From positions 1,994,381 through 2,058,380 of the forward strand of contig OZ251569.1 of assembly GCA_965243595.1 (NCBI GenBank): a DNA stretch of 64,000 nucleotides, given 5' to 3'. A model generated the notes under the pieces. It saw only the letters and a list, made by a program, of their open reading frames with translations, did not search any database and was not told the origin of the DNA. Position 1 is the first letter of the stretch; each line of letters opens with the position of its first letter. The translations under genes and the position numbers were made by a program. Origin of the DNA: Thermodesulfobacteriota bacterium (GTDB taxonomy: Bacteria > Desulfobacterota_D > UBA1144 > Nemesobacterales > Nemesobacteraceae). This document shows positions 1,453 through 8,142 of this stretch, one piece after another.

Positions 1453-1697
1453 GAGATCACCTCTTCTTTCGCAACGCGGGATGGACTAAACTTTAGAGCA
1501 CTCCCCCCCGAGTGTCAAACCGCGAAGGAGGATGAGCCGTGCCTGAAAAATCACGGCGGCCTGCGCTTTCTTTTCCCGCGAGACCGGGTAATTGTAAGCA
1601 AAGGCTTGAAGGGTAATAGGTCAGAGACAACTTTCATGTCTTGCGGGCATCGGGTGTTATGTCCCGCGTAAAAATATCCCGGAGAGAGGAAATCCCC

Positions 1698-2009
1698 ATG
1701 TCGGAACTGCTGGAACAGAGAATAAGTCATATTGAAAACGACGTAGGCGAGATCAAAGGCACCGTAAAGCAGCTTTCCACCACCGTTGATAGGCTTTCTA
1801 CCACTGTCGACAGGCTTTCCACCACCATCGGGACGCTTTCCACCATCGTCGGGAGAATAGAGACCAAGATAGACGAAAGAGAAAAGGCGATCAAAGACAA
1901 GTTTGAAGACCAGGGAAAAAGAATCGACAGGCTGGGCTTCCGGTTCTGGGCGCTTGTCATCTTAATAATCGGCGGTCTGCTCCCGCTTATCCATAAAGCC
2001 TATTTTTAG
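1698..2009 (+). CDS. small coiled-coil protein with C-terminal transmembrane anchor (haemolysin XhlA-like architecture)
   Basis: ATG at 1698 is preceded by GGAGAGAGGA (Shine-Dalgarno). The product MSELLEQRISHIENDVGEIKGTVKQLSTTVDRLSTTVDRLSTTIGTLSTIVGRIETKI...WALVILIIGGLLPLIHKAYF is a heptad-rich N-terminus plus a single C-terminal TM helix. The longer ORF beginning at 1641 is probably an over-extension. Confidence 0.5.
   Translation: MSELLEQRISHIENDVGEIKGTVKQLSTTVDRLSTTVDRLSTTIGTLSTIVGRIETKIDEREKAIKDKFEDQGKRIDRLGFRFWALVILIIGGLLPLIHKAYF
1773..1856 (+). repeat. four tandem imperfect 21-nt repeats (ctttccaccaccgttgatagg-like) encoding the LSTTVDR/LSTTIGT/LSTIVGR heptads
   Basis: Direct inspection: units at 1773-1793, 1794-1814, 1815-1835 and 1836-1856 share ctttc(c/t)acca(c/t)... 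They lie in frame inside the small coiled-coil gene. Confidence 0.8.
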
Positions 2010-2081: not shown

Positions 2082-3263
2082 CTACATTTCCAGAACCGAT
2101 TTCGCCTCCCCGAAGGCCGAAAGTGCCAGAGACACGTGTTCCTCGGTGTGCGTGGCCATGAGGGAAGCTCTTATCCTGCATTTTCCCTCGGGCACCGAAG
2201 GCGGCCTCACCGCGGGGGTGTACACTCCCTTTTCCCGGAGTTCCGCCGCAAACCGGAGGGTGGATTCCGGTTCTCCCGTAAGCACGGGCACAATCGCCGA
2301 ACTTGAAGGAAGAACGGAGAGTCCCATGCCCCGAAGCCCCGCCTTGAACGACGAAACCATTTTCATGAGATGCCCCCTTCTTTCCGGTTCGCTCTCTATT
2401 ATGCGTATCGCCTCGAGCGAAGCGGCCAGGCAGGCCGGAGGCAGGGACGTGTCGAAGATATAGCTTCTGACCCTGTTTCTTATGAAGTCGACAAGCTTTC
2501 GGCCGCCGGCCACGTATCCGCCGAGCGACCCCACGGCCTTCGACAGCGTGCCCATCACCACGGGAACCCTGCTTTCGACTCCGAAGCTCTCGGTCGCGCC
2601 GCTTCCTTTCGCCCCCAGAACTCCCATGGCGTGGGCCTCGTCTACCATGAGCATGCAACCGTGTCTCTCCGCCACGTCGCAGAGGTCCTCGAGGTTCGCG
2701 AGATCCCCGTCCATGCTGAACACGGTGTCGGTGACTATGAGCTTCTTTCCCCCTCCGCGCGTTCCGGCCGCCATTTCGGAGAGTCTCCCGACGTCCAGGT
2801 GGGGGTAGACCCTCACCGCCGCTCGGGAGAGGCGGCAGCCGTCTATTATGGAAGCGTGGTTGAGCTCGTCGCTGAAAACAGTGTCCCCTTCCCCGACCAG
2901 GGCGGAGATGGTGCCGACGTTGGCGAGGTAGCCGCTCGAAAAAAGAATGGCGGACTCGGTGGACTTGAACTCCGCTATCCTTCGTTCAAGCTCCGCGTGG
3001 AGGTCCGAGTTTCCGCTCACCAGCCTCGACCCCCCGGAACCCGCGCCGTATCTTGCGAGGGCGTTCGAGGCCGCCTCCACCACCCTTGGATCCGTCGCGA
3101 GGCCCAGGTAGCCGTTGGAGGCGAAAAGCAGGTGCTTCCTTCCGTCTATCAGGACTTCCGGATCCTGCCCCGAGGCTATCTCCGTAAGCGTCCTGAAAAG
3201 GTTGCCGTCGCGGATAGCCCTTATCTCGTCGTCTATCCAGGCGAGGGGGTCAGGTCTTTTCAT
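2082..3263 (-). CDS. bioF: 8-amino-7-oxononanoate synthase
   Basis: MKRPDPLAWIDDEIRAIRDGNLFRTL...HASIIDGCRLS...FSMDGD...GTLSKAVGSLGGYV is an AONS-type class II aminotransferase with the PLP-lysine in SKAVG. Its start ATG (3261-3263) overlaps the bioA stop (ATGA). The 662-aa track ORF is an artefactual upstream extension. Confidence 0.85.
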   Translation of the reverse strand: MKRPDPLAWIDDEIRAIRDGNLFRTLTEIASGQDPEVLIDGRKHLLFASNGYLGLATDPRVVEAASNALARYGAGSGGSRLVSGNSDLHAELERRIAEFKSTESAILFSSGYLANVGTISALVGEGDTVFSDELNHASIIDGCRLSRAAVRVYPHLDVGRLSEMAAGTRGGGKKLIVTDTVFSMDGDLANLEDLCDVAERHGCMLMVDEAHAMGVLGAKGSGATESFGVESRVPVVMGTLSKAVGSLGGYVAGGRKLVDFIRNRVRSYIFDTSLPPACLAASLEAIRIIESEPERRGHLMKMVSSFKAGLRGMGLSVLPSSSAIVPVLTGEPESTLRFAAELREKGVYTPAVRPPSVPEGKCRIRASLMATHTEEHVSLALSAFGEAKSVLEM

Positions 3264-4630
3264 CGCTCGTCCTCTGTCCCCGCCGTCACCTCTTTTATGG
3301 AAGCGTACGTGGCCCGCACGAGTTCTCCCAGTTCCTCTTTCGAGATTCCCACCGGAGGCATCAGCACCACCACGTCGCCGAGAGGCCTTATGAGGACCCC
3401 CCGGGAAAGGGCCGCCTCGGCCACCCGCCAGCCGGTTTTTTCCGCCGCGTCGTAGGGCCGGGCGGTCGCCTTGTCCTCGACGAGCTCTATTCCGACCATG
3501 AATCCCTTGTTCCGCACGTTTCCGACGTGGGCGAGCCCCTCGAACTCCCGAAGCTCGTCCTCGAGAAAATCTATTTTTTCCGAAAGGGTTTCCAGGGTGC
3601 TTCTGTTTCGAAAGGCCTCGAGGTTTCCCATCGCCGCCGCGCACGAAAGCGGATTTCCGGCGTAGCTGTGACCGTGAAAGAATGTCTTGTACTCCTCGTG
3701 GTTTCCCAGAAACTCCTCGTATATCTTCTCCGTGGTCACCGTGGCGGAAAGCGGAAGATATCCCCCCGTCATTCCCTTTCCGAGGACCATTATGTCCGGG
3801 GAGACGCCGTCGTGCTCGCAGGCGAACATCTTTCCCGTCCGCCCGAAGCCGGTCGCGACCTCGTCCACTATCATGAGCACATCGTGGCGGTCGCAGTACT
3901 CCCTTATCTTTCGAAGGTACCCGTCGGGAGCGACTATCATTCCCCCCGCGGCCTGAACGCAGGGCTCGAGGATGACGGCCGCTATCTCCGCGCCGTGTTT
4001 CTCGAGCATCTTTCCCGCCTCGTCCGCGCACGCGATTCCGCACCCGGGCCAGGTCTTTCCCAGCGGACACCTGTAGCAGTAGTAGGAAGGAGCCCTGAAG
4101 GTCTTGAAGAGAAGCGGGGAGAACGCCTTGTGGAAAACGTCGATTCCCCCGACTGAAACCGCCCCCAGCGTGTCTCCGTGGTAGCCGTTGTCCAGGCAGA
4201 GAAACGCCTTTTTCCCGTCCCTGCCCTTGTGAGCCCAGTACTGAAAGGCCATCTTGACGGCCACTTCCACGGCGCTGGCCCCGTCGCCCGAGTAAAAGAC
4301 CTTTTTCAGTCCCGGGGGACAGATCTCCGCGATTTCCTTCGCAAGTTCCGCCGCCGGGGGGTTGGTAACTCCGAGCAGGGTGCTGTGGCTCACCAGGTCG
4401 ACCTGCTTTTTTATGGCCTCGTCTATCTCCGCGACGCCGTGGCCGTGCACGTTCACCCAGAGGGAGGAAACGCCGTCTATGTAGCTTCTTCCCTCGGAGT
4501 CTATCAGGCGGCAGCCTTCGGCGCGCTCGATGATTATCGGGTCCTTCTCCTCGTACTCCTTCATCTGGGTGAAGGGGTGCCAGACGAACTCCCTGTCGTA
4601 GGACCCTATCTGTTTCGATCTTTCGGTCAC
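3260..4630 (-). CDS. bioA: adenosylmethionine-8-amino-7-oxononanoate aminotransferase
   Basis: The conserved core EFVWHPFTQMKEY...YSGDGASAVEVAVKMA...DEVATGFGRTGKMFA...HGHSYAGNPL is that of DAPA aminotransferase. The proposed start is GTG at 4628-4630, preceded by GGGAGG about 10 nt upstream. The track ORF extends further into non-coding sequence. Confidence 0.85.
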   Translation of the reverse strand: MTERSKQIGSYDREFVWHPFTQMKEYEEKDPIIIERAEGCRLIDSEGRSYIDGVSSLWVNVHGHGVAEIDEAIKKQVDLVSHSTLLGVTNPPAAELAKEIAEICPPGLKKVFYSGDGASAVEVAVKMAFQYWAHKGRDGKKAFLCLDNGYHGDTLGAVSVGGIDVFHKAFSPLLFKTFRAPSYYCYRCPLGKTWPGCGIACADEAGKMLEKHGAEIAAVILEPCVQAAGGMIVAPDGYLRKIREYCDRHDVLMIVDEVATGFGRTGKMFACEHDGVSPDIMVLGKGMTGGYLPLSATVTTEKIYEEFLGNHEEYKTFFHGHSYAGNPLSCAAAMGNLEAFRNRSTLETLSEKIDFLEDELREFEGLAHVGNVRNKGFMVGIELVEDKATARPYDAAEKTGWRVAEAALSRGVLIRPLGDVVVLMPPVGISKEELGELVRATYASIKEVTAGTEDER

Positions 4631-4633
4631 CGC

Positions 4634-4868
4634 GCCCTGTTCCTCCCGGTCTTCAAACGAGACCGGCCGTGAAAGGATACCTGTATTTGCCGCTTGAACC
4701 TTCGCGCGGGGCCGCAGGCGAGCGCGTCGGAAAAACCGACAAGCGAAATACTTCTTGAAAAAAAACGGCGCTATCCATATACTGTCGTTGTGAATTGTAA
4801 GTGTTGGAATATCGTAAAGCATTAACAACTCACATCAATCCTCATCACATCGTATAAGGAGCGAACAA
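4634..4868. promoter_or_regulatory. divergent AT-rich intergenic region between bioA (-) and the Panacea-domain gene (+); presumably carries promoters for both
   Basis: GC content drops sharply (cttcttgaaaaaaaacggcgctatccatatactgtcgttgtgaattgtaagtgttggaatatcgtaaagcattaac...). A 6-bp-stem hairpin ccggtc-N9-gaccgg abuts the bioA SD. A TGTGA...TCACA pair is present but is not a canonical CRP or BirA site. Confidence 0.3.
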
Positions 4869-5417
4869 GTGTTCAGAGTAGAAACCGCCGGGCAGATGGC
4901 CGCTTGGTTATTGGACAAGCAAGGTGGAAAAATGCCCCACCTGAAACTTATGAAGCTGCTTTATCTGGCTGAAAGAACATATATTCGGAAAAACGGCCAC
5001 CCCTTCTTGGGAGACAAGCTGGTATCAATGGACCACGGTCCTGTCCTGAGCGTTACGCTGAACTACATGCAGGGATACAAAGAACCGGGCAACGGCTGGG
5101 ACAAGTGGGTATCGCCGAAAGAAAATCACGAAGTCTCGCTGGCGAGGCAGTATAACGAGGACGACCTCGGTCTGATGAACGAAGCCATGCTGGAAGTTCT
5201 TGAAGAGATCTGGCGAGAATTCGGTTATATGGACCAATGGAAGATTCGAGATTATACGCACGAATATTGCACGGAGTGGAAAGACCCCAATGGCTCGTCT
5301 AATCCAATCACGTATGAAAATCTCTTAGCCGCGTTGGGGCATGGAGAGATAGAAGCGGCGGAAATGGCGAGGGAGTTCAGGACGCAGCAGGAAGTTACAA
5401 AAGCCCTTTTATCGTGA
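4869..5417 (+). CDS. Panacea (DUF4065) domain protein, SocA/PanA-like putative antitoxin
   Basis: MFRVETAGQMAAWLLDKQGGKMPHLKLMKLLYLAERTYIRKNGHPFLGDKL matches the conserved KLxKLLYxAe N-terminal signature of Panacea-domain proteins. GTG at 4869 is preceded by AAGGAG. The gene is low-GC relative to the flanks. Confidence 0.6.
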   Translation: MFRVETAGQMAAWLLDKQGGKMPHLKLMKLLYLAERTYIRKNGHPFLGDKLVSMDHGPVLSVTLNYMQGYKEPGNGWDKWVSPKENHEVSLARQYNEDDLGLMNEAMLEVLEEIWREFGYMDQWKIRDYTHEYCTEWKDPNGSSNPITYENLLAALGHGEIEAAEMAREFRTQQEVTKALLS

Positions 5418-5441
5418 GTTTTCCGCAAAAAGTTCTCCCGT

Positions 5442-5834
5442 ATGTTTATCCCCGCACCCGGTGTCGCTTTTCTGGCTCCATCCGAACAAGGACCCCATCT
5501 CCATTTCATTCTTACTCCTTCCCTCGACGGGAAAGTTCTGGTGGTTGGTATAACTTCCAGCAGCATTGACCCGGCGTTTACCCTCAACCCGGGCGACCAC
5601 GAATTCATCAGGCACGAAAGTTTCATCAATTACCCGGCCGCGGAGATAATTCCGGTGAAGGAGATTGAAAGAAAGCTGAATTCATCAGACGACCGCGAAA
5701 AATTCATTCCGAAAAAAATGGCGGACGCCGATGTCGTCGAACATCTTCGCCTGGGACTTCTGGAATCCCGATATTCATTGAAAGTCCATAGAGAATTCTA
5801 CAAAAGAGTCCTAAAAGGTCCAAGTTCCAAATAA
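5442..5834 (+). CDS. hypothetical 130-aa protein immediately downstream of the Panacea gene (candidate toxin partner)
   Basis: It lies 25 nt after the Panacea stop on the same strand, in the same low-GC segment, and has no recognisable family (MFIPAPGVAFLAPSEQGPHLHFILTPSLDGKVLVVGITSS...). No obvious SD precedes the ATG, so the start is uncertain. Confidence 0.4.
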   Translation: MFIPAPGVAFLAPSEQGPHLHFILTPSLDGKVLVVGITSSSIDPAFTLNPGDHEFIRHESFINYPAAEIIPVKEIERKLNSSDDREKFIPKKMADADVVEHLRLGLLESRYSLKVHREFYKRVLKGPSSK

Positions 5835-5944
5835 CTCCCGGACAACTTTCAACTTGACGGAAACGCATGAAGGTAAGGTCGCGCGACCCGCAGTGTTGCC
5901 TCTACTTTTGAATCTCCGTCTTGCGGGAGACTGCCGGCGTACCG

Positions 5945-7015
5945 CTAGTTGAGGATTTCCTTCCTGACGGGCATCTCGAGATCGTCGAGCATCCGCAGGT
6001 CTTCCTGCGGCGAGCGTCCGGGCGTCGTGAGGTAGTTTCCGAGAATCATGGCGTTCGCCCCGGCGACAAGACCCATGGCCTGAAGGTCGCGAAGCGTCAC
6101 TTCCCTTCCTCCCGCGGTCATTATTATCTTGTCGGGAAGCACCAGTCTGAAAATCGATATGGTCTTGACCGCCTCGAAGGGCTGTATGGGCGCAAGGTCC
6201 TGAAACGGCGTTCCCGGCCGGGGGTCGAGGAAATTTATCGGCACCCACGTGGGGTCGAGTTCCCTTATCTCGAAGGCGAACTCCATTCTCTGGGCGACGG
6301 TCTCGCCCATGCCAAGTATGCCTCCCGAGCAGAGGTTCATCCCCGTCTCCTTGACGAGGAGAGCGGTCTTGAGCCTGTCGTCGTAGCCGTGCGTTGTGCA
6401 TATGTTCGGAAAATGGCTCCTGCAGGTCTCGACGTTGTGGTTGTATCTCCACACTCCGTGGTCCCGAAGCTCGTATGCCTGCTCCCTGCTGAGGTCGCCC
6501 AGCGAGCAGCCGACCTTGAGGTTCGTCTTCTCGCGCAGAAGGTCCACGGCCTCGAGCACCTTTCCGAATATCCTGGGCGTAGGACCCTTGGCGCTTATCA
6601 CTATGCAGAAGTCCATGGCGCCCATCTTCTCGGCCTGGCGCGCGGCGCCCAGTATCTTCTCCGCCGCCATGAGAGGATGAGCCTCGACCTCGGTGTCGAA
6701 GTGCGCCGACTGGGAGCAGAAGGAGCAGTCCTCGGGGCAGTTGCCAGTCTGGGCGCTTATTATGGAGCGCAGAAACACTCCGTCGCCCTTGTACTTCAGG
6801 GTAACCTTTCTCGCGAGCGATATGAGGTCCGAAACCCTCTCCCTCGGAAGCTCCGTGAGCTCAAGCGCCTCGGGGAAGGTTATGTTCTCCTCTTTTTCGA
6901 GAAGTTTCTCTGAAACTGTGTCTAGAATGTCTATGTCGGGACGCCTCGGAATATCCGGATTCAGGGAAAGGTAAGTTACAGAAACCGAAGGGATTGTCAA
7001 ACGAAACGGCGGCAC
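5945..7015 (-). CDS. bioB: biotin synthase
   Basis: The radical-SAM cluster motif CPEDCSFCSQS, SLGDLSREQAYELRDHG and NLCSGGILGMGE (2Fe-2S region) are typical BioB. The start is uncertain: GTG at 7013-7015 or a TTG a few codons later; the conserved core begins about 30 aa downstream. Confidence 0.85.
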   Translation of the reverse strand: MPPFRLTIPSVSVTYLSLNPDIPRRPDIDILDTVSEKLLEKEENITFPEALELTELPRERVSDLISLARKVTLKYKGDGVFLRSIISAQTGNCPEDCSFCSQSAHFDTEVEAHPLMAAEKILGAARQAEKMGAMDFCIVISAKGPTPRIFGKVLEAVDLLREKTNLKVGCSLGDLSREQAYELRDHGVWRYNHNVETCRSHFPNICTTHGYDDRLKTALLVKETGMNLCSGGILGMGETVAQRMEFAFEIRELDPTWVPINFLDPRPGTPFQDLAPIQPFEAVKTISIFRLVLPDKIIMTAGGREVTLRDLQAMGLVAGANAMILGNYLTTPGRSPQEDLRMLDDLEMPVRKEILN

Positions 7016-7224: not shown

Positions 7225-8142
7225 ATGAATCGCACTTTGTTCTCAATCGCTTACGACGGGCCGGCGGTTCGCGACGGAGTGATGGAAGTGCGCGACCTGG
7301 CCCCAGCGCTTCTGGCCGTCGGAAAACTCTTTGACGCGGCAAGCAGGGAACTTAACGGCGAAGACATCAAAGTCAACGTCAACGTCAGAGCCACGGAAGC
7401 CGGGTCGTTTGAAGTTCTTCTCGAACTGACCCAGAAACTGGGAGGGCAGCTGGTGGAACTTCTCAGCGGCGACCAGGTTACGGCCGCCGTACAGCTAAGA
7501 GAACTCGCGCTGGGAGGGGCCGCGAGCGCGGCGGGACTCATCTGGCTGATCAAAAAACTCAGGGGACGCAACCCGGACAAGATAGAGAAAACGGACGAAG
7601 GCAGCGTGCGCCTGACAGTCGGCGACGAAAGTTTCGAAGTTCCGACCGAGCTTCTGAGGCTCTACAAAGACATCGCCGTGCGCAAGGCTCTTGAAGAACT
7701 TGTCGAGAAGCCTCTCAAGCGCGACGGCATTGAAAAATTCGAGGTGCGCGGCAAGGACGACCCGTCAAAACCTCCCGAACCGCTGGAAACCGTCTCGAAA
7801 CCGGAATCCGATTACTTCACCATCAGGGAAGGACCCGATGAAAAAGTGCTCGTCGAATCCACAAGGAAAGCCGCCTTTCATATCATTTCGCTCGCATTCA
7901 AAGACGACAACAAGTGGCGACTGACGGACGGCGACGCCCAGATTACCGCGCTCATCACGGATCAGGACTTCCTTCGGCGCGTCAACTCGAACGAGATAGC
8001 GTTTGCCAGAGGGGATGTCCTGATATGCGAGGTGAAGACCATCCAGAAACAGGGAATCGAAGGTCTGAAAACCGAGCATATAGTGCAAAGCGTAAACGAG
8101 CACAAACCCGCGATGCGTCAGCTGGATCTTCCCATCCAGTAA
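7225..8142 (+). CDS. hypothetical protein (305 aa), no recognisable family
   Basis: A clean ORF (MNRTLFSIAYDGPAVRDGVMEVRDLAPALLAVGKLF...) with soluble-protein composition, isolated on the + strand between bioB and a deoxyribosyltransferase-like gene. Confidence 0.55.
   Translation: MNRTLFSIAYDGPAVRDGVMEVRDLAPALLAVGKLFDAASRELNGEDIKVNVNVRATEAGSFEVLLELTQKLGGQLVELLSGDQVTAAVQLRELALGGAASAAGLIWLIKKLRGRNPDKIEKTDEGSVRLTVGDESFEVPTELLRLYKDIAVRKALEELVEKPLKRDGIEKFEVRGKDDPSKPPEPLETVSKPESDYFTIREGPDEKVLVESTRKAAFHIISLAFKDDNKWRLTDGDAQITALITDQDFLRRVNSNEIAFARGDVLICEVKTIQKQGIEGLKTEHIVQSVNEHKPAMRQLDLPIQ

Follow-up and report, generated by a model that had tools for sequence, protein, structure and literature searches.

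A candidate panAT toxin–antitoxin cassette encoding a predicted MazF-fold toxin splits the biotin operon of a Thermodesulfobacteriota lineage

A 64,000 nt stretch of a Thermodesulfobacteriota metagenome-assembled genome (MAG; assembly GCA_965243595.1, contig OZ251569.1, positions 1,994,381 to 2,058,380), referred to here as the window, carries two adjacent genes, panA and panT, that interrupt a biotin-synthesis operon and that we take, with a probability of roughly 0.85, to form a type II PanAT toxin–antitoxin (TA) module. A toxin with a MazF-like fold (PanT, 130 aa) would block translation, and a Panacea-domain antitoxin (PanA, 182 aa) would bind and neutralize it directly. Both ORFs are found at the positions and on the plus strand given in a preliminary description of this DNA, with panA first and, from the ORF coordinates, 24 nt separating it from panT on the same strand (Table 1).

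PanA is a Panacea protein. The KLMKLLYLAE motif is seen in its sequence, and the Panacea (DUF4065) call of the preliminary description stands when checked with a hidden Markov model (HMM): with 82.5 bits, the match to PF13274 (SocA_Panacea) lies above the gathering cutoff of 25.7 (E-value 5.5e-23), and it extends over the complete profile (positions 1–113 of 113), corresponding to PanA residues 27–138. The protein also matches phrog_1281 of the PHROGs collection (E-value 1e-28). A C-terminal tail of 44 aa follows the Panacea domain, and since there is no other domain, PanA is of the 'standalone' type.

The 130 aa ORF had initially been described as having no recognizable family, which is correct for the HMM libraries and incorrect for its fold, which is that of MazF, and for its profile match to cluster T6 of Kurata (2022). 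Scans against the Pfam, NCBIfam and PADLOC models gave no match to PanT, PanA too was matched by no PADLOC model, and in PHROGs the only PanT match is a weak one to phrog_19071. Just ten close relatives were nevertheless returned when 5.8 billion proteins were searched with a word index, and a profile built from these, run with no word filtering on a set of 1.84 billion cluster representatives, found 1056 clusters at E ≤ 1e-3; at 50 % identity the family amounts to about 1000 clusters. Of the 150 best matches listed, nearly all have lengths of 90–160 aa. The members carry no Pfam domain and are named 'hypothetical' in their source databases, and one was named by the Joint Genome Institute (JGI) 'mRNA-degrading endonuclease toxin of MazEF'. 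In an alignment of 70 family members, with the window protein as its first row, H19 and H53 are invariant (H19 in 70/70), residues L20, L48, G51, F55, I56, S60, Y64, G105 and S109 are nearly so, and positions 38 and 39 are occupied by T/S in 57 and by S/T in 69 of the 70 sequences, respectively. The family can be recognized by the motifs HL, (T/S)(S/T), GDHxFI, SYxxY and GxxxS.

One member of this family has been studied experimentally. In Pseudomonas phage Sirocco a PanT-family gene overlaps the end of a PanA gene by 1 nt, and this PanA starts with MIFSEQKVAQ, the decapeptide that was added to the N-terminus of Pseudomonas moraviensis PanA (Table 1 footnote; Kurata 2022, PMC8832971). A search with the Sirocco toxin led to SDU72800.1 of P. 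moraviensis BS3668, whose gene in GCA_900105805.1 lies 3′ of, and overlaps by 1 nt, a gene for a 196 aa Panacea protein containing IFSEQKVAQ, nine residues of the decapeptide. In Dataset S1 (Kurata 2022, PMC8832971) the row for T6 gives PanA WP_083354365.1 and PanT WP_083201923.1 from assembly GCA_900105805.1 with a gap of −1, and we equate SDU72800.1 with this PanT because the assembly, the gene order, the −1 gap and the IFSEQKVAQ of the upstream PanA are the same. The profile of the 70 family members matches the whole of SDU72800.1 with a probability of 99.5 % (hhalign, E-value 1.1e-22, 118 aligned columns), and the PanA proteins of the window and of P. moraviensis share 39 % identity from end to end, C-terminal tail included (E-value 3e-46). 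Judged by these comparisons, the window pair belongs to a toxin family with an experimentally validated member. P. moraviensis PanT is toxic, is neutralized by its PanA and inhibits translation (Kurata 2022, PNAS 119:e2102212119, PMC8832971), blocking incorporation of 35S-Met specifically and not that of thymidine (PMC8832971).

The window and P. moraviensis pairs are alike in that the antitoxin gene comes first and encodes a standalone Panacea protein, and in that the toxins, which belong to the same family, are both without a match in the Conserved Domain Database (CDD) or Pfam yet have a MazF-like structure. They differ in that the toxins share only about 24 % pairwise identity (with GDHEFI in the window protein where P. 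moraviensis has ECHPYV), in having a 24 nt gap rather than a 1 nt overlap, and in host and location, the window pair, with its predicted toxin, lying in a Thermodesulfobacteriota MAG inside a bio operon. The largest cluster of Kurata, T1 ('mRNase'), was also considered as the family of PanT and was rejected. Its members, such as orf161 of Salmonella phage vB_SemP_Emek, resemble PanT as small proteins encoded directly 3′ of a Panacea gene but are not homologous to this family, the PanT family HMM giving orf161 a score of −1.6. In Emek this ORF and orf149 share 62 nt, in agreement with Dataset S1.

The P. moraviensis data also bear on how PanA would act. A conceivable alternative is that PanA is a proteolytic adaptor like SocA of the Caulobacter crescentus type VI system SocAB, handing its toxin to ClpXP; PF13274, which the SocAB antitoxin shares, is named after SocA, and PanA has a weak match to the NCBIfam SocA_antitoxin model (E-value 3e-4). 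That match covers only PanA residues 16–64 and, at 20.5 bits, fails the equivalog cutoff of 190 (NF047745) by a wide margin, and the partner is not SocB but a protein of predicted MazF fold unrelated to it. In the homologous P. moraviensis pair, moreover, neutralization is by direct binding, the PanA:PanT complex being stable in pull-down and ClpXP and Lon both dispensable (Kurata 2022, PMC8832971). We consider an adaptor role for PanA very improbable, and direct neutralization in a type II module remains our preferred interpretation.

That PanT is the cognate partner of PanA, as the preliminary description had supposed, is strongly favoured by gene neighbourhoods: wherever the surroundings of a PanT relative were retrieved, in more than 12 independent contexts without exception, a Panacea gene lies directly upstream on the same strand. 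This strict linkage extends to relatives with only about 30 % identity, with either a gap of 24–40 nt or an overlap of 1–4 nt, and the flanking genes are different in each context. Within the Thermodesulfobacteriota the pair lies between bioA and bioB (the window and loci L011–L014), between an alcohol dehydrogenase gene and a HepT/MNT pair (L001–L006) or between a helix–turn–helix gene and queF (L007–L010). In two acidobacterial loci (L018 and L019) the PanT is about 31 % identical and its gene overlaps the Panacea gene by 4 nt, and in a JGI contig (L020) the pair adjoins a type II restriction–modification methylase and a transposase. It is also found in accessory positions, often beside the integrase, in temperate phages and prophages of Escherichia coli, Klebsiella, Vibrio, Yersinia, Pseudomonas and Helicobacter, and on the P. 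moraviensis chromosome, where the PanT homologue is directly 3′ of the Panacea gene. PanAT pairs were delimited in silico by a gap of ≤100 nt, occurrence in ≥2 species, the absence of a longer operon, and reciprocity (Kurata 2022). The window pair has a PF13274 antitoxin, a gap within that limit, no longer operon around it, conservation in Thermodesulfobacteriota, Acidobacteria, Gammaproteobacteria and phages, and reciprocity; searches with PanA and with PanT land on the same phage records at adjacent coordinates.

Among 5426 complete E. coli genomes, 208 carry a pair of this family, which RefSeq labels 'Panacea domain-containing protein' and 'hypothetical protein'. The prophage-borne E. coli pair WP_000458584.1/WP_014640052.1 is always chromosomal (for example L103, in E. 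coli O103 RM8385); a tblastn search against plasmids gave no match, and neither accession was matched in Kurata Dataset S1. It would lend itself well to experimental work. At L001–L006 we note that the HepT/MNT-type pair (NTase_sub_bind and NTP_transf_2) directly follows panAT (approximately 6431–7200 in L001 and 5180–5918 in L002) and that an Eco47II-type restriction–modification system is close by, giving a small TA and defence cluster; the MNT gene is uncalled in L001 and L003.

The structure of PanT was predicted with AlphaFold2, which gave a predicted local distance difference test score (pLDDT) of 95.9 and a predicted template modelling score (pTM) of 0.89 with the 70-sequence alignment, as against a pLDDT of just 49.6 with a shallow alignment of eight sequences. 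In the model, an N-terminal β-barrel (strands 9–12, 19–23, 31–38 and 60–71) is accompanied by helices at residues 72–79, 96–108 and 114–125. Foldseek matches it to MazF structures with a probability of 1.00 and a target-normalized TM-score of about 0.6, and structures of MazF and Kid rank above CcdB in both fold searches. On the basis of this model, PanT is a highly diverged predicted toxin of the MazF fold (an SH3-like barrel); by its profile match it falls in Kurata cluster T6. Combinations of PanA with MazF-fold toxins are already documented, in clusters T5, T6 and T25 (Kurata 2022, PMC8832971), and MazF/PemK is among the commonest folds in the network (Ernits 2023). The antitoxin sets the window pair apart from the MazEF types, being a Panacea protein rather than one of the AbrB/MazE or ribbon–helix–helix type. 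Since the predicted barrel is common to MazF, Kid and CcdB, PanT could in principle be a CcdB-like gyrase poison or some other non-nuclease binder built on the same scaffold. We think this unlikely, given the lower rank of CcdB in the structure searches, the effect of the P. moraviensis homologue on translation and not on DNA replication as followed by thymidine incorporation, and the retention after strand 3 of a Thr/Ser-Ser motif as in MazF; the CcdAB antitoxin is also of another kind. A MazF-type toxin is the better description of the model.

The location of the pair was originally interpreted as an insertion into an ancestral bio operon, on the grounds that it is AT-rich and lies on the opposite strand between bioB and bioA–bioF, and both the premises and the conclusion are upheld. 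The pair has a G+C content of about 49 % as against 60–64 % in its flanks, and in a G+C profile values of 0.47–0.50 over approximately positions 4650–6000 compare with 0.58–0.64 on either side. The flanking genes are all on the minus strand, so that panAT is antisense to them, with panT convergent with bioB and panA divergent from bioA across a region of 238 bp. A scan of metagenomes for BioB gave 79 loci, of which 52 have BioB at 73–91 % identity and both genes present; in all 52 bioA follows bioB on the same strand, with a median gap of 75 bp (range −17 to 532 bp), and neither panA nor panT is present. The wider order in the insertion-free relatives is NDT-bioB-bioA-bioF-deoC, where NDT is the nucleoside 2-deoxyribosyltransferase gene. 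The pair is present at bioB–bioA only in the window and in L011–L014, in which BioB is 97 % identical and the site and orientation are the same; the closest carriers are chromosomes of Thermodesulfobacteriota MAGs. Exact boundaries of the insertion were not obtained by alignment to the insertion-free intergenic regions, because this DNA is too diverged in the relatives.

Divergence among the carriers gives an indication of the age of the insertion. Synonymous divergence (dS) is 0.51–0.73 for panA and 0.33–0.63 for panT, similar to the values for the flanking genes (0.34 for bioB and 0.41–0.45 for bioA), which argues that the cassette was gained once, before the carrier lineages split, and has been kept since. 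The ratio of non-synonymous to synonymous divergence (dN/dS) among the syntenic orthologues is 0.14–0.20 for panA, 0.30–0.36 for panT and 0.04–0.05 for bioB; both genes of the pair are under purifying selection, which is more relaxed than in their neighbours. On our reading, a mobile, horizontally acquired cassette landed in the 75 bp bioB–bioA spacer of one Thermodesulfobacteriota lineage and split bioBAF. It is a possibility that this antisense insertion alters the regulation of biotin synthesis, with bioB uncoupled from bioAF and panAT convergent with bioB.

Several observations weigh against the interpretation of the pair as an active module with a MazF-type toxin. Unlike the toxins of MazEF, Kis–Kid and EndoAI–EndoA, PanT has no significant sequence similarity to this group: PF02452 (PemK_toxin) is not matched by the window protein at E-values up to 1 and is matched by just one of the 70 family members, weakly (E-value 0.0025), PDB sequence searches with profiles of 8 and of 70 PanT sequences gave nothing significant, and the match by hhalign between the 70-sequence alignment and one of E. 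coli MazF, Kid and Bacillus subtilis EndoA (whose sequences exactly matched PDB chains) is weak, with an E-value of 0.043 and a probability of 1.2 %. The canonical catalytic arginine of MazF is absent, its position being held by an invariant histidine. Eight of the 25 PanTs assayed showed no toxicity in E. coli (Kurata 2022, PMC8832971). Selection on panT is more relaxed than on the neighbouring genes, with a dN/dS of about 0.3, and the gene has no obvious Shine–Dalgarno sequence of its own before its ATG at 5442. Finally, there is no operator-like inverted repeat and PanA has no DNA-binding domain, so that autoregulation is unexplained.

Since the similarity to MazF is not significant, the mapping of residues is of low confidence, although the register given by hhalign agrees with the strand boundaries of the PanT model. 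In this low-confidence register (E-value 0.043) H19, at the start of strand 2, would align with MazF R29, and T38-S39, at the end of strand 3, with MazF T52-T53. Residues R29 and T52 are catalytic in MazF. The second invariant histidine, H53, is within the family-specific GDHxFI loop, which MazF is without, and PanT further differs from MazF in its extra C-terminal helix (114–125). From these alignments we infer that the active site of PanT may be histidine-based. PanT probably acts as an endoribonuclease, most likely a metal-independent one cleaving mRNA, tRNA or rRNA. A bolder proposal is that the PanT family forms a branch of the MazF fold with a mechanism of its own: the invariant His pair, H19 at the Arg29 position and H53 of the GDHxFI loop, would take over the acid–base chemistry from Arg, the substrate could be tRNA or rRNA instead of mRNA, and activation could depend on a trigger sensed by Panacea; we regard this as doubtful.

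A copy of panT with 99 % identity is annotated publicly (NCBI/ENA, P0003) as a gene of only 97 aa, which begins at an internal codon and leaves out the N-terminal 33 residues with their conserved strands and the invariant His19. We note that RefSeq also shortens many of the Pseudomonas and Halomonas members of the family, to 103–108 aa. Taken with the lack of a clear Shine–Dalgarno sequence, the relaxed dN/dS and the several PanTs that are non-toxic in E. coli, the short annotation might suggest that the 130 aa ORF is a decaying or non-toxic remnant and the pair a neutral passenger. This seems to us improbable, as neither the window copy nor any homologue has lost the full-length frame, the 33 residues in question are themselves conserved, dN/dS is far below 1 in all comparisons, and a dS close to the values for the neighbouring genes implies that the pair has long been kept after it inserted. 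A gene encoding a 130 aa toxin accounts better for these features.

Expression of the pair can be tentatively outlined. A candidate sigma-70-like promoter upstream of panA was recognized by its consensus match, at 10 of 12 positions, and its TTGAAA and TATACT hexamers are kept in the syntenic loci L011, L012 and L014 while the intergenic DNA around them diverges; the Shine–Dalgarno block AGGAGCGAACAA(A/G)TG before panA is invariant in the same three loci. Neither the two intergenic regions nor the flanks of the inserted segment showed inverted repeats or operators, an Rfam scan of that segment at E-values up to 1 gave no match, and a terminator scan gave as its sole candidate a weak hairpin at 5883–5899 that is no better than in shuffled sequence. 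From the conserved promoter and Shine–Dalgarno sequence a bicistronic panA–panT transcript would be produced, encoding the standalone Panacea antitoxin and a toxin predicted to combine a MazF/Kid SH3-like barrel with the extra helix. By homology to the P. moraviensis pair, PanT would arrest growth by a specific block of protein synthesis, and PanA would neutralize it through a stable protein–protein complex and not by handing it over to a protease. We also note a hairpin-like element, GGTCT(N7)AGACC, on the minus strand at approximately 4646–4666, some 20–35 nt 5′ of the start of bioA. Loci L011, L012 and L014 share this short element unchanged, with variable sequence farther upstream. It matches no Rfam family, and may serve as an operator or form a leader structure of bioA.

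As to its biological role, the module may serve in addiction or the stress response, or it may chiefly be a device for abortive infection and phage defence, in which PanA acts as a sensor that frees or activates PanT on infection; this would change the role and not the parts. The positions of family members in temperate phages and prophages point in this direction, as do the Thermodesulfobacteriota copy beside the HepT/MNT pair and a restriction–modification system, the copy adjoining the type II restriction–modification methylase and transposase, and, in the window itself, a gene of the PADLOC candidate family PDC-S42 across bioB. On the other side, PADLOC has no model that matches PanA or PanT, and what the window holds at this site is one cassette within a biosynthetic operon rather than a defence island. 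A primarily defensive function is possible, and we lean somewhat away from it; the assignment of the locus as a type II module is the same in either case.

Table 1. Features of the panAT locus and its surroundings (window coordinates)
Feature	Position	Strand	Remarks
panA	4869-5417	+	182 aa, GTG start, Panacea domain
panT	5442-5834	+	130 aa, ATG start, MazF/Kid fold (model), predicted toxin
Candidate sigma-70-like promoter of panAT	4755-4783	+	TTGAAA, 17 nt spacer, TATACT
Shine–Dalgarno sequence of panA	4856-4861	+	AAGGAG, 7 nt before the GTG start; read from the sequence
Inserted segment	4631-5944		~1.3 kb, bioA start to bioB stop; G+C ~0.49
bioB (biotin synthase)	5945-~7000	-	Radical_SAM and BATS in syntenic orthologues; start approximate, from the 351 aa calls of relatives
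bioA (aminotransferase class III)	3260-4630	-	Aminotran_3 in orthologues; GTG start at 4630 set by alignment to L022
bioF (8-amino-7-oxononanoate synthase-like aminotransferase)	~2082-3263	-	Aminotran_1_2 in orthologues; 90 % identity (tblastn); start approximate
PDC-S42 gene	7225-8142	+	305 aa
ORF between deoC and bioF	1641-2009	+	122 aa

Two further genes near the operon are listed in Table 1. The product of the first matches PDC-S42, a PADLOC candidate defence family, with 380.5 bits (E-value 1.6e-114), and also the NCBIfam model LAPAL_fam ('LAPAL motif-containing putative phage structural protein') with 274.6 bits against a cutoff of 60. Its gene sits between bioB and the nucleoside 2-deoxyribosyltransferase gene and is found solely in the window and L014; in L011, L012 and the remaining bioB loci covering this interval it is missing, and the two flanking genes are adjacent. 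With panAT this makes two small lineage-specific insertions, one on each flank of bioB. The second, a 122 aa ORF, lies in another dip of G+C content (approximately 0.50–0.52) and encodes a heptad-like repeat region (TVDRLSTTVDRLSTT) and a hydrophobic C-terminal segment, with weak Pfam matches of the coiled-coil type; in its place L011 and L012 have a gene of 82–85 aa.

What is added here is modestly new in three respects: an explicit description of the PanT family, with its size, motifs and high-confidence predicted fold, for which there is no Pfam, NCBIfam or PADLOC model; a correction of the public panT gene call from 97 to 130 aa; and a well-documented TA cassette that splits bioBAF. Knowledge of how PanAT systems work is unchanged by this locus. 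The practical value lies in annotation, since the family motifs and the MazF fold would let PanT loci be labelled automatically, while the invariant His pair offers a concrete target for mutagenesis. The locus itself provides a clean and datable case of a TA cassette breaking a conserved biosynthetic operon.

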